From Escherichia coli (GTDB lineage Bacteria; Pseudomonadota; Gammaproteobacteria; Enterobacterales; Enterobacteriaceae), in the NCBI RefSeq assembly GCF_024298765.1, contig NZ_CP101214.1: 6,988 nt of DNA. The stretch is one strand, 5' to 3'. The translations under genes were made by a program, and so were the position numbers. The notes under the pieces were generated by a model. That model saw only the letters and a list, made by a program, of their open reading frames with translations. It had not been told where the DNA came from and ran no database searches. This document shows, piece by piece, positions 1-6,988 of the stretch. Numbering within the stretch: position 1 is the stretch's first letter; every line of letters begins with the position of its first letter.

Positions 1-378
1 GAACGCAGTAAGACTGGTCAGGGAGTAAGTGAGTATGACAGAGCTGGAAATGCACTTACTGAACGCCTTAGAGCAATTGCAGCAGGACTATACGCAGCGG
101 CTGAAAGACTGGGAGAGCGCCTTCACGGATTTGCAGCATATGTTCGAGCTGACACGACAGGAGAACGGGCAACTGAGGGAACAGTGCGACGACTTGAGTC
201 AGCAGGTGCAGAGATTAGCCGGGCAGGTGGACCACTTGAGTCGGTTATTTATCACGAACAGCAGATAAGGGATGAACAGGAAAGGCAGGCACGCCTGGAA
301 CGGGAGCGTGCGCGGTCCTGGCATGAAGAGCAGGAACGGGAAGCACGGGTATGGCGTGGCCCGTCAATAGGGATGTGA
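1..378 (+). CDS. mbeA: 3' portion of the MbeA/MobA-family relaxase gene (5'-truncated at the window edge; contiguous with 5768-6988 if the replicon is circular)
   Basis: Frame 1 is open from position 1 to TGA at 376-378 (126 codons) with no start codon needed. The window ends at 6988 exactly on an mbeA codon boundary, so 5768..6988 plus 1..378 would form one uninterrupted ORF of about 532 codons. The tail is Arg/Glu-rich (...ERERARSWHEEQEREARVWRGPSIGM). Confidence 0.55.
   Translation, partial: ERSKTGQGVSEYDRAGNALTERLRAIAAGLYAAAERLGERLHGFAAYVRADTTGERATEGTVRRLESAGAEISRAGGPLESVIYHEQQIRDEQERQARLERERARSWHEEQEREARVWRGPSIGM
35..268 (+). CDS. mbeD: MbeD/MobD-family small mobilisation protein (coiled-coil), nested in another frame within the 3' end of mbeA
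   Basis: ATG at 35 (in-frame GTG at 29), 77 aa, MTELEMHLLNALEQLQQDYTQRLKDWESAFTDLQ..., a heptad-rich helical protein. Its position inside the relaxase 3' region matches the ColE1 mob arrangement as I recall it. Family assignment is from memory, not a search. Confidence 0.6.
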   Translation: MTELEMHLLNALEQLQQDYTQRLKDWESAFTDLQHMFELTRQENGQLREQCDDLSQQVQRLAGQVDHLSRLFITNSR

Positions 379-1574: not shown

Positions 1575-1856
1575 TGGGGGCGTATTTTCCCCGGTTTCTT
1601 CCATAACCTTTTTACCGTTCAGATATTTACGGGCGAGGCGAATGCGTCTTGCCTGGTATACCGCCGAGTAAGCCTGGGTGGGATTCACACCATTACTGAT
1701 TTCACTGACCACATGACGCTGATCAGCCAGTGTCAGCGTGTAAACCTGTTTCTGGATGAGGTCACGGGCTTTGTCATGCTCATATCCGGCAGCAACAAGG
1801 GTGTCGAGAAGTCGTTTGTCTGTTTTGTTCAGTTTATGGCGGGGTGATTTGCTCAC
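1566..1856 (-). CDS. Small basic protein with a putative helix-turn-helix (candidate DNA-binding regulator), unknown function
   Basis: Minus-strand ORF. Best start is GTG at 1856 with GGAG 6 nt upstream (the track's longer ORF starts at an in-frame TTG at 1883). 96 aa. The segment HVVSEISNGVNPTQAYSAVYQARRIRLARKY looks like helix-turn-helix. Converges on the 1296-1574 gene with a 9-bp overlap. Confidence 0.5.
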   Translation of the reverse strand: MSKSPRHKLNKTDKRLLDTLVAAGYEHDKARDLIQKQVYTLTLADQRHVVSEISNGVNPTQAYSAVYQARRIRLARKYLNGKKVMEETGENTPPSA

Positions 1857-4058: not shown

Positions 4059-4190
4059 ATGAAAATAATAATTTTTCTAATTACAATATTATTCTTGTCA
4101 GGATGTCAAGCAAACTATATTCGTGATGTACAAGGAGGAACCGTTGCACCATCTTCGTCTTCTGAACTGACGGGGATCGCGGTTCAGTAG
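4059..4190 (+). CDS. ckl: Colicin lysis (bacteriocin release) lipoprotein, 43 aa
   Basis: ATG at 4059, TAG at 4188-4190; not in the ORF track because it is short. [43 protein letters not shown] has a signal peptide with an L-S-G-C lipobox and the conserved mature region of colicin lysis proteins. Last gene of the colicin operon. Confidence 0.85.
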
Positions 4191-4199
4191 AAAAGATCA

Positions 4200-4226
4200 A
4201 AGGATCTTCTTGAGATCCTTTTTTTC
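4200..4226 (+). terminator. Putative rho-independent terminator at the end of the colicin operon (overlaps the RNA II promoter)
   Basis: Inverted repeat AAGGATC (4200-4206) / GATCCTT (4214-4220) with a 7-nt loop, followed by a T-run (4219-4225), 10 bp after the lysis gene stop. Confidence 0.55.
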
Positions 4227-4238
4227 TGCGCGTAATCT
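4210..4238 (+). promoter_or_regulatory. RNA II (replication primer) promoter
   Basis: -35 TTGAGA (4210-4215), 17-bp spacer, -10 TAATCT (4233-4238). Same architecture as the pMB1/ColE1 RNA II promoter in pBR322, recalled from memory. Confidence 0.75.
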
Positions 4239-4249
4239 GCTGCCTGTAA

Positions 4250-4352
4250 ACGAAAAAACCGCCTGGGGAGGCGGTTTAGTCGAAGGTTAAGTCAGTTGGG
4301 GACTGCTTAACCGGGTAACTGGCTTTAGTGGAGCACAGATACCAAATGCTGT
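4250..4352 (-). ncRNA. RNA I antisense copy-number control RNA (about 100 nt)
   Basis: Minus-strand promoter: -35 TTGAAG (complement of 4383-4388), 18-bp spacer, -10 TACACT (complement of 4359-4364), start near 4352 (ACAGCAUUUGG...). 3' end has a hairpin, AACCGCCT / AGGCGGTT at 4257-4276, followed on the minus strand by a U-run. Fully complementary to the 5' end of RNA II. Confidence 0.8.
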
Positions 4353-4358
4353 CCTTCC

Positions 4359-4388
4359 AGTGTAGCCGCTATAAGGCTTCAACTTCAA
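4359..4388 (-). promoter_or_regulatory. RNA I promoter
   Basis: TTGAAG -35 and TACACT -10 on the minus strand with an 18-bp spacer, arranged as in pBR322 RNA I. Confidence 0.7.
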
Positions 4389-4784
4389 GAGTTCTGCGTA
4401 TCTAAATCCACTATCCAGTTACCAATGGCTGCTGCCAGTGGCGTTAAGTCGTGTCTTACCGGGTTGGACTCAAGACGATAGTTACCGGATAAGGCGCAGC
4501 GGTCGGGCTGAACGGGGGGTTCGTGCACACAGCCCAGCTTGGAGCGAACGACCTACACCGAACTGAGATACCAACAGCGTGAGCTATGAGAAAGCGCCAC
4601 GCTTCCCAAAGGGAGAAAGGCGGACAGGTATCCGGTAAGCGGCAGGGTCGGAACAGGAGAGCGCACGAGGGAGCCACCAGGGGGAAACGCCTGGTATCTT
4701 TAAGTCCTGTCGGGTTTCGCCACCTCTGACTTGAGCGTCGGTTTTTGTGATGCTCGTCAGGGGGGCGGAGCCTATGGAAAAACG

Positions 4785-4815
4785 CCAGCTGCGTGGCCTT
4801 TTCCGGGTTCTTGTT
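4785..4815 (+). other. Approximate origin of replication (RNA II to DNA transition) of the ColE1-type replicon
   Basis: About 555 nt downstream of the RNA II start, in the sequence aacgccagctgcgtggccttttccgggttc, which corresponds to the pBR322 ori neighbourhood. The exact switch point cannot be fixed by eye. Confidence 0.5.
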
Positions 4816-5039
4816 TTTTGCTCACATGTTTCTTTTGGTGTTATCCCCTGATTCTGTGGATAACCGCATTACCGTCTTTGAGTGAGCTGATACCGCTCGC
4901 CGCAGCCGAACGACCGAGCGGAGCGAGTCAGTGAGCGAGGAAGCGGAAAAGCGCCTGGACGAGCATTTTCTCCTTACGCATCTGTGCGGCATTTCACACC
5001 CGGCATGGTGCACTTTTCATACAATCCTCACTGATGCCA

Positions 5040-5110
5040 AATGATTAAGCCAGTATACACTCCGCTATCGCTACGTGACTGGGTCATGGCTGCGCCCCGA
5101 CACCCGCTAA
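5040..5110 (-). other. bom / oriT region with putative nic site (basis of mobility)
   Basis: Sequence taagccagtatacactccgctatcgctacgtgactgggtcatggctgcgcc matches the pBR322 bom region as recalled. The reverse complement contains GTATACTGGCTTA, the ColE1-type nic motif, with the nick expected near 5049/5050 on the minus strand. Confidence 0.7.
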
Positions 5111-5195
5111 AACCCGCTGACGCGCCCTGACGGGCTTGTCTGCTCCCGGCATCCGCTCACAGGCCAGCTGTGACCGTCTCCGGGAGCTGCATGTG

Positions 5196-5387
5196 TCAGA
5201 GGTTTTCACCGTCATCCCCGAAGCGTGCGAGGCAGCTGCGGTAAAGCTCGTCAGCGTGGTCGTGAAGCGCTTCGCAGATGTCAGCCTGGTCGTCGGCGTC
5301 CAGTTCATTCAGTTTTTCCAGCAGGGTCAGCGTCTGGCTTCTGATGAAGCGGGCCATGTTAAGGGCGGTTTTTTCCTGTTTAGTCAC
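5196..5387 (-). CDS. rom: Rom/Rop (RNA-one modulator), 63 aa
   Basis: GTG start at 5387. Translation VTKQEKTALNMARFIRSQTLTLLEKLNELDADDQADICEALHDHADELYRSCLARFGDDGENL is nearly identical to pBR322 Rop as I recall it. The track's longer 143-aa ORF is an upstream in-frame extension. Confidence 0.9.
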   Translation of the reverse strand: MTKQEKTALNMARFIRSQTLTLLEKLNELDADDQADICEALHDHADELYRSCLARFGDDGENL

Positions 5388-5430
5388 AGTTCTGTTTCTC
5401 CATGTGTGGGGAGTCTGTCGGAGGTTTTTA

Positions 5431-5778
5431 ATGATACCGGTGAAACGCGAAAGGATGCTCACGATACGGGTCACGGATGAGGAACATGCGCGGCTGCTGG
5501 CACGTTGTGAGGGAAAACAACTTGCGTCATGGATGCGTAAGGTCTGCCTGGGGGCACCGCCATCGAAAACGTCAGGTCTTCCGACACTGGCACCGCCGCT
5601 GTTGCGCCAGTTCGCTTCGGTCGGCAATAACCTGAATCAGATAGCCCGGAAGATAAACAGCGGACAGTGGTCGGGGCATGACCGGGTTCATGTGGTGGCT
5701 GCACTGATGGCCATCGGACGTGAACTGAGTGAGCTGAGGGATGAGGTCCGTAAACAGGGAGAACGGGATGATAGTTAA
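5431..5778 (+). CDS. mbeC: MbeC/MobC-family mobilisation accessory protein (likely ribbon-helix-helix)
   Basis: ATG at 5431 has GGAGG 6 nt upstream; a second in-frame ATG at 5455 (MLTIRVTDEEHARLLARCEGKQLASWMRK...) would give 107 aa. N-terminus matches the MbeC remnant I recall in pBR322. Divergent from rom; its stop region overlaps the mbeA start. Confidence 0.8.
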   Translation: MIPVKRERMLTIRVTDEEHARLLARCEGKQLASWMRKVCLGAPPSKTSGLPTLAPPLLRQFASVGNNLNQIARKINSGQWSGHDRVHVVAALMAIGRELSELRDEVRKQGERDDS

Positions 5779-6988
5779 GTTTCATGCCAGGGGAAAAGGC
5801 GGTGGCAGTGGTCCGGTTGATTACCTGCTGGGCCGGGAGCGTAACCGGGAAGGGGCGAGAGTTCTGCGGGGTGCTCCCGAAGAGGTGCGGGAACTCATCG
5901 ATGCCACGCCGTTTGCGAAAAAATACACCTCGGGGGTTCTGTCTTTTGCAGAGCAGACCCTGCCACCGGGAGAGCGTGAAAGGGTGATGGAGAGCTTTGA
6001 GCGGGTACTGATGCCCGGTCTTGAAAAAAATCAGTACAGCATCCTGTGGGTGGAGCACCAGGACAAGGGGCGTCTTGAGCTGAATTTTGTCATCCCGAAT
6101 ATGGAGCTGGCGAGCGGAAAACGGCTCCAGCCCTATTACGACCGAGCAGACCGTCCGCGAATCAATGCCTGGCAGACACTGGTGAATCACCATTACGGGC
6201 TGCACGACCCGAACGCACCGGAGAACAGGCGGACACTTGTCACCCCGAATAATCTGCCGAAAGCGAAACAGGAGGCCGCAGAAGCGATTACGAGGGGACT
6301 GGAGGCTCTTTACCATGCCGGAGCACTAAAAACGCGTCAGGATGTCACTGAGGCGCTTACAGCGGCAGGTTTTGAGGTTGTGAGGACAACCAGGAGCAGT
6401 ATCAGTATCGCCGACCCGGAGGGTGGGCGTAATCTCAGGCTGAAAGGGGCGCTGTATGAGCAATCTTTTACAAATGGGGACAGACTTCGAGAAGAAACTG
6501 AAAGAGCGTGCCGTCTCTACAGAGAACATGCTGAACAGCGAGTTCAGGAAGCTCGAAGCGTCTGTAGACAGGGAACTGAACTTAAACGGGCAGAAAATCA
6601 GAGACGCTATCAGCGCACACACAGCAGCGGTGAAAGAACAACTGGAGACGCTGAACAGTGCCGTGAACGCGCAGTTCAGCGCCACAGAGAACGAACTGGC
6701 CCGGCGGCAGGAAGAGCTGCTCTGGAAGCTGGTCAAAGGGCGGATACTGTACCCGTCGCTGACGGCGCTTTGCGTCACGGGCGGGATTTTTCTGGCGTCA
6801 TGGGGGCTGATTCAGTGGCAGGAAAGCCGGATTGCGGCGAACATCCTGGCTATCAGGGACCAGGAAGAGACGCTGGCGAAACTCCGGGAAAAAACATGGG
6901 GTGTGACGTATCACGAGGGCAGGAACGGGAAATTTCTGGTGTTGCCGTCCGGGGTGAAGGGGGAAAACAACTGGACGGTGGAGAAGAA
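5768..6988 (+). CDS. mbeA: MbeA/MobA-family relaxase, 5' portion (ORF runs off the window end)
   Basis: ATG at 5768 overlapping the end of mbeC. N-terminus MIVKFHARGKGGGSGPVDYLLGRERNREGARVLRGAPEEV is typical of ColE1-family (MOB HEN-type) relaxases. No stop in frame through 6988 (407 codons), so it is absent from the ORF track. Confidence 0.9.
   Translation, partial: MIVKFHARGKGGGSGPVDYLLGRERNREGARVLRGAPEEVRELIDATPFAKKYTSGVLSFAEQTLPPGERERVMESFERVLMPGLEKNQYSILWVEHQDKGRLELNFVIPNMELASGKRLQPYYDRADRPRINAWQTLVNHHYGLHDPNAPENRRTLVTPNNLPKAKQEAAEAITRGLEALYHAGALKTRQDVTEALTAAGFEVVRTTRSSISIADPEGGRNLRLKGALYEQSFTNGDRLREETERACRLYREHAEQRVQEARSVCRQGTELKRAENQRRYQRTHSSGERTTGDAEQCRERAVQRHRERTGPAAGRAALEAGQRADTVPVADGALRHGRDFSGVMGADSVAGKPDCGEHPGYQGPGRDAGETPGKNMGCDVSRGQEREISGVAVRGEGGKQLDGGEE
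6456..6988 (+). CDS. mbeB: MbeB/MobB-family mobilisation protein, nested in an alternate frame within mbeA (3' end beyond the window edge)
   Basis: ATG at 6456 (alternative in-frame ATG at 6474). MSNLLQMGTDFEKKLKERAVSTENMLNSEFRKLEASVDRELNLNGQKIRDAI..., with a predicted TM segment (ILYPSLTALCVTGGIFLASWGLI). Open to the window end. If the replicon is circular the frame would stop at window positions 26-28, just before mbeD. Confidence 0.65.
   Translation, partial: MSNLLQMGTDFEKKLKERAVSTENMLNSEFRKLEASVDRELNLNGQKIRDAISAHTAAVKEQLETLNSAVNAQFSATENELARRQEELLWKLVKGRILYPSLTALCVTGGIFLASWGLIQWQESRIAANILAIRDQEETLAKLREKTWGVTYHEGRNGKFLVLPSGVKGENNWTVEK

Follow-up and report, generated by a model that had tools for sequence, protein, structure and literature searches.

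ColE-type origins of transfer (oriT) lie between oriV and rom, and the strand nicked there is complementary to the RNA II-sense strand (PMC9282650). Plasmids that carry such an oriT together with mobC-mobA/BD genes were mobilised by IncP, one of them also by F; where the oriT was present but mob genes were lacking, IncP did not mobilise the plasmid (PMC9282650). Among the MOBP relaxases, the replacement of the three histidines of motif III (3H) by HEN defines the MOB-HEN subgroup (PMC12857230), and genes for MOB-HEN relaxases typically have mobC ahead of them and one or two genes nested inside (PMC5703827).

We analysed a stretch of DNA of 6988 bp (the window), in which an initial annotation had placed a bom/oriT at 5040-5110. 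Megablast of the whole window returned many circular plasmids of 6988-6995 bp that matched it over the full length at 99.6-99.9% identity and are annotated with colicin K (cka), the immunity gene (cki), the lysis gene, Rop, MobC, MbeB, MbeD and Exc2. The window is therefore a complete, circular colicin K plasmid of the ColE1 type; genes leaving one end of it resume at the opposite one. The reference colicin K plasmid, pColK-K235 (NC_006881), is collinear with the window and 99.6-99.8% identical across all of it, oriT included, with the cka, cki and lysis genes and the mob genes in common. It differs in carrying an IS2 insertion (about 1.33 kb, between its positions 868 and 2199) that the window does not have. 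The alignments flanking this IS2 overlap by a few bases at window positions 1769-1774. As set out below, the segment at about 5046-5104, with flanks reaching to about 5130, is very probably the cis-acting bom/oriT of this plasmid. The features of the region are listed in Table 1.

Table 1 Features of the oriT region and the mob genes in the window
Feature	Position	Strand	Sequence or product	Basis and remarks
RNAI	4250..4350	-		Rfam RF00106, 77 bits; fixes position and direction of the ColE1-type replicon
Nick-region 13-mer	5046..5058	-	GTATACTGGCTTA	Exact match; same in ColE1 and pColK-K235; invariant or nearly so in 16 plasmids
Conserved oriT core (59 nt)	5046..5104	-	GGTGTCGGGGCGCAGCCATGACCCAGTCACGTAGCGATAGCGGAGTGTATACTGG/CTTA	One block of invariant or nearly invariant columns in 16 diverse plasmids
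IR-2, nick-proximal hairpin	5050..5082	-	CCAGTCAC (5082-5075) / GTG (5060-5058) + ACTGG (5054-5050), 3-nt bulge TAT	Single-stranded DNA fold
IR-1, distal repeat	5083..5101	-	GTCGGGGC (5101-5094) - GCA - GCCATGAC (5090-5083)	One G-T pair, one mismatch; defined by hand
Nested inverted repeat	5142..5187	-	GCTCCCGG/CCGGGAGC around CGCTCACAG/CTGTGACCG	Repeat finder; directly after the rom stop codon, flanks oriT
rom (rop)	5196..5387	-	63 aa, GTG start	Pfam Rop, 125 bits; annotated Rop in identical plasmids
mbeC	5431..5778	+	Nicking accessory protein, 115 aa	Pfam MobC and NikA-like; 76.5% identical to ColE1 MbeC
mbeA	5768..6988 then 1..378, across the circular junction	+	Relaxase, 532 aa	Intact ORF; NF047848.1; Pfam Relaxase
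mbeB	6456..6988 on to 28	+	Nested in mbeA, other frame	Pfam MbeB_N, 84 bits; 46% identical to ColE1 MbeB
mbeD	35..268	+	Nested in mbeA	Pfam MbeD_MobD, 118 bits; 62% identical to ColE1 MbeD

Position and strand of the nick motif

The 13-mer GTATACTGGCTTA was found once in the window, as an exact match (0 mismatches) at 5046-5058 of the minus strand, and no second site was present in the window even when up to two mismatches were allowed (0.13 expected by chance). This agrees with the initial annotation, which had described a ColE1-type nic motif on the minus strand between ori and rom. Following ColE1 (CTGG/CTTA), the nick is predicted between G5050 and C5049 of the minus strand; the exact dinucleotide, G/C, is reportedly that described for ColE1 by Varsaki and colleagues. 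The nick core CTGGCTTA, which is contained exactly in the 13-mer, is identical to the ColE1 oriT sequence that holds the cleavage site (PMC5703827).

The motif stands about 265 bp past the replication origin and before rom, which runs opposite to the mob operon. The sequence ggaaaaacgccagc at 4776-4789 is taken to be the RNA II-to-DNA switch (near 4783), as in ColE1 and pBR322. Since RNAI was found on the minus strand, RNA II runs on the plus strand. With RNAI, rom and the motif all on the minus strand, the position and the strand of the motif fit the layout described for ColE-type oriTs (PMC9282650).

Comparison with the ColE1 oriT had been named as a check in the initial annotation. The bom/oriT of ColE1 (NC_001371, about 1421-1556) is about 95% identical to the window over 260 bp, and the mean column identity in the 260 bp around the motif was 93% in an alignment of the window, ColE1 and pColK-K235. 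The window has the ColE1 sequence without change from the nick through the nick-proximal inverted repeat (IR-2), nick core included, and the nick-proximal 37 nt are the same in both. The order and orientation of the genes are also those of ColE1, namely the lysis gene, ori, oriT and rom (minus strand), followed by mbeC and mbeA with nested mbeB and mbeD (plus strand). The window differs from ColE1 by a mismatch in the distal inverted repeat, IR-1 (C to A, position 5087), and by several substitutions on the 3' side of nic, a part that is not expected to be conserved. By sequence, position and strand, the oriT of the window is an orthologue of the ColE1 oriT, so that the site had been named correctly; nicking, the nick position and mobilisation here we infer from this homology. 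In the bom of pBR322/pMB1, located between rop and ori, the nick motif is likewise GTATACTGGCTTAA, with CCAGTCACGTAGCGATAGCGGAGT upstream of it as here. The mob genes were lost from pBR322, which depends on mob functions supplied in trans.

Nick motifs of other transfer systems (F, R64/RP4, R1162 and R388) were not found in the whole circular plasmid at up to three mismatches, and we therefore conclude that it has no second known oriT of these types; the CloDF13 11-mer is too short for a scan of this kind to mean anything. A promoter scan of 4150-5800 detected no sigma-70-like site. No such site was reported even where RNA I and RNA II have their promoters, and the scan is therefore uninformative on the mob promoter.

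Conservation and inverted repeats 5' of the nick

A sensitive BLAST search with 116 nt around the site retrieved 4835 plasmid records, 4421 of them typed as mobilizable and 366 as non-mobilizable. We aligned 16 plasmids: the window, ColE1 and 14 matches sampled over the whole identity range. The conserved columns form a single block at 5046-5104, to which the coordinates of the initial annotation (5040-5110) correspond almost exactly. Beyond CTTA conservation is lost: in these 16 plasmids it breaks off 4 nt to the 3' side of the predicted nick. Such a pattern would be expected if the relaxase and its accessory proteins recognise sequence 5' of nic, and this abrupt boundary, only a few bases beyond the nick, independently supports the placement of the nick in CTGG/CTTA.

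Col(MG828)-type plasmids of about 1.5 kb, which carry no relaxase, share with the window only a 63-nt core (5043-5105 of the window) at 95% identity. In p4-H9 (1551 bp, Col(MG828)), an example of an orphan oriT, the 63-nt core is like that of the window, but mob genes are absent and the flanks are unrelated. The Col(MG828) plasmids appear to carry orphan oriTs, which would depend on a ColE1-type relaxase in trans, and the capture of the core by relaxase-less plasmids in effect delimits the transferable unit in nature. Relaxase-less plasmids of 1.5-3 kb, with no relaxase typing, also have the oriT core. NZ_CP029183.1 (1551 bp) has two annotated genes, no relaxase and the 63-nt oriT core alone.

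Could the interval between ori and rom be conserved for replication or transcription, as a primosome assembly (single-strand initiation) site or as the rom terminator, and not for transfer? The interval lies some 265 bp downstream of the origin, in a part of ColE1-type plasmids that holds PriA-dependent sites, and a strong nested hairpin (5142-5187) follows rom. This hairpin is probably the rom terminator, and the corresponding region of ColE1 and pBR322 also has a PriA (factor Y) primosome site with the motif (A/G)AGCGG. However, the nick motif marks the exact end of the conserved block, which leaves out the hairpin, the 63-nt core stands alone on a 1.5-kb plasmid of a different replicon type, Col(MG828), and the 13-mer corresponds to the cleavage region described for ColE1. 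We consider a replication or transcription role as the cause of the conservation to be extremely unlikely, and favour the interpretation of the segment as bom/oriT.

Two inverted repeats, both short and modest, are located at 5050-5101, 5' of nic on the nicked strand. The initial annotation had the motif followed by inverted repeats on the reverse complement. The repeats are indeed present, but their order had been misread: they have higher coordinates than the motif and lie 5' of the nick on the minus strand, so they precede the motif there, and "followed by" is right in plus-strand coordinates only.

IR-2 is the sole helix retained in the centroid of the single-stranded DNA fold of the minus strand, and the predicted nick is at the 3' foot of its stem. 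All eight pairs of IR-2 are invariant in the 16 plasmids, and this invariance therefore speaks neither for nor against pairing. For IR-1, 91% of the cells (pairs in individual plasmids) are paired across the 16 plasmids. Its outermost pair changes on both sides, from G-C to T-A, which is a compensatory exchange, and in one plasmid subgroup IR-1 is shifted yet still palindromic (TCCGG...CCGGA). Taken together, IR-1 and IR-2 are paired in 95.7% of the cells in the 16 plasmids, with one compensatory pair. A repeat finder with 6-nt exact seeds picked up neither of them and reported the hairpin after rom alone; moreover, shuffled versions of the oriT region fold just as well (z = -0.22), so that structure alone gives no support. 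The inverted repeats are thus supported by their conservation and the one compensatory pair, and not by thermodynamics. IR-1 is a candidate binding site for a relaxosome protein.

The fifth pair of IR-1 is mismatched in the window alone, which has A5087 where all 15 other aligned plasmids have C. A5087 is also found in pColK-K235, and about 40 plasmid records with at least 99% identity across the region share the variant. Within IR-1, the pColK-K235 record differs from the window by one substitution and a 1-nt gap. In these comparisons, the IR-1 mismatch is specific to the colicin K lineage, and it is the one unusual detail of this site.

The 5' arm of IR-1 lies in GGGTGTCGGGG (5094-5104, minus strand), which is one base off the CloDF13 nick sequence GGGTG/GTCGGG (PMC5935869). 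This likeness suggests that the CloDF13 and ColE1 transfer origins have a common ancestry and are cut at different places.

The mob operon and the proposed course of transfer

The initial annotation had listed mbeC, mbeA, mbeB and mbeD, and all four are intact as judged by profile matches and open reading frames. It had also noted the oppositely oriented rom as separating oriT from the mob operon; rom (5196-5387, minus strand) indeed lies between oriT and the operon, which begins on the plus strand with mbeC at 5431. The architecture of the operon is that described for MOB-HEN relaxase genes (PMC5703827), with mbeC first and then mbeA with nested mbeB and mbeD: mbeA begins just before the end of mbeC, and mbeB and mbeD lie inside it in other frames.

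The product of mbeA scored 717 bits on the NCBIfam model NF047848.1 (relax_MbeA_E1, plasmid mobilization relaxase MbeA; cut-off 500 bits). Its overall identity to ColE1 MbeA is 60%, rising to 85% within the first 234 residues and to 91% within the first 160. Y19 (motif I) and H97, E104 and N106 (the HEN of motif III) are retained, and the motif reads WVEHQDKGRLELNF. In ColE1, according to Varsaki and colleagues, Tyr19 is reportedly the catalytic residue of MbeA, and MbeC is said to bind double-stranded DNA through Arg13; MbeC of the window retains this R13. As far as can be judged from the encoded proteins, the plasmid has an intact MOB-HEN relaxase of the MbeA type together with MbeC, MbeB and MbeD.

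Public annotations of these genes differ from ours in several points. For mbeC, PGAP sets the start at an internal Met at 5455 (107 aa). The start used here (5431, 115 aa) has a GGAGG Shine-Dalgarno sequence upstream, and the conserved Arg is at position 13 with that start only. In the identical plasmid NZ_CP047384.1, PGAP calls MbeA a partial pseudogene ("missing C-terminus"), and the PLSDB gene tables leave out MbeA even for ColE1. That MbeA is a pseudogene was ruled out, as neither the window nor any of four related records shows an interruption of the 532-aa open reading frame. The label is probably an annotation artefact of a gene that has nested genes or crosses the start of the record.

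The presence of this operon bears on the proposal that the site is mainly a target of relaxases supplied in trans by other ColE1-type plasmids, with the mob operon in cis dispensable for its use. Relaxase-less plasmids with the same core are common (the 366 non-mobilizable records and the plasmids of 1.5-3 kb), and the supply of relaxase in trans has been discussed (PMC9282650). Against this, a complete and intact mob operon is kept beside the site, and use in trans, plausible in itself, would be additional to the main explanation and no replacement for it. As a replacement we give it almost no probability, and the plasmid's own mob proteins are used in the model that follows.

In this model, MbeC, a ribbon-helix-helix protein, would bind oriT as double-stranded DNA on the 5' side of nic, probably in the area of IR-1 and the GCGGGT repeats, and MbeA would recognise the conserved minus-strand stretch CCAGTCAC...GTGTATACTGG. 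MbeA would then cut between G5050 and C5049, with Tyr19 becoming covalently joined to the 5' phosphate of C5049 and a metal ion held by the His97/Glu104/Asn106 triad. The coupling protein and the type IV secretion channel would come from a co-resident conjugative plasmid of the IncF, IncI or IncP type. The minus strand would be transferred 5' to 3', that is, to decreasing coordinates, so that entry would begin with the replication origin and end with rom, the mob genes and the inverted repeats. The relaxase would rejoin the strand when its 3' end brings in the repeats and the nick sequence a second time.

The divergence from ColE1 could alternatively mean that this is a decayed or mismatched oriT of ColE1-like ancestry, made inefficient or inactive in cis by the diverged relaxase or by the mismatch in IR-1. 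The window is the only one of the 16 aligned plasmids with a mismatch in IR-1, the identity to the ColE1 proteins is just 60% (MbeA), 46% (MbeB) and 62% (MbeD), and F failed to mobilise one plasmid that has its own mob operon and a highly conserved ColE-type oriT (PMC9282650). Nevertheless, the relaxase reaches 91% identity over 160 aa in its N-terminal domain, with all catalytic residues retained, the nick-proximal 37 nt are the same as in ColE1, about 40 records carry the exact variant and the same plasmid occurs in three genera. Decay is, in our view, very unlikely, and we retain the interpretation of the segment as the cis-acting bom/oriT of the colicin K plasmid.

It is also conceivable, though we regard it as unlikely, that relaxosome specificity has shifted, as marked by the C-to-A break in IR-1 together with the low identity of the relaxase to MbeA (60%), such that the relaxase/MbeC pairs of ColK and ColE1 would no longer cross-recognise each other's oriTs. 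If this were true, closely related bom sites would be functionally insulated.

Annotation and spread of the colicin K plasmid

The oriT of the colicin K plasmid is a textbook element on a known plasmid and has already been described. Conjugation biology gains nothing new from it; its practical value is that of correct annotation, and an oriT annotation was absent from every public record examined.

Full-length plasmids with 99.8-99.9% identity to the window were found in E. coli, Salmonella enterica and Shigella flexneri, and such near-identical plasmids in three genera are consistent with recent horizontal spread. Mobilisation by a helper fits these near-identical copies across E. coli, Salmonella and Shigella: having an oriT and its own mob genes, the colicin K plasmid could be moved by a co-resident IncF, IncI or IncP plasmid, which would explain its spread.
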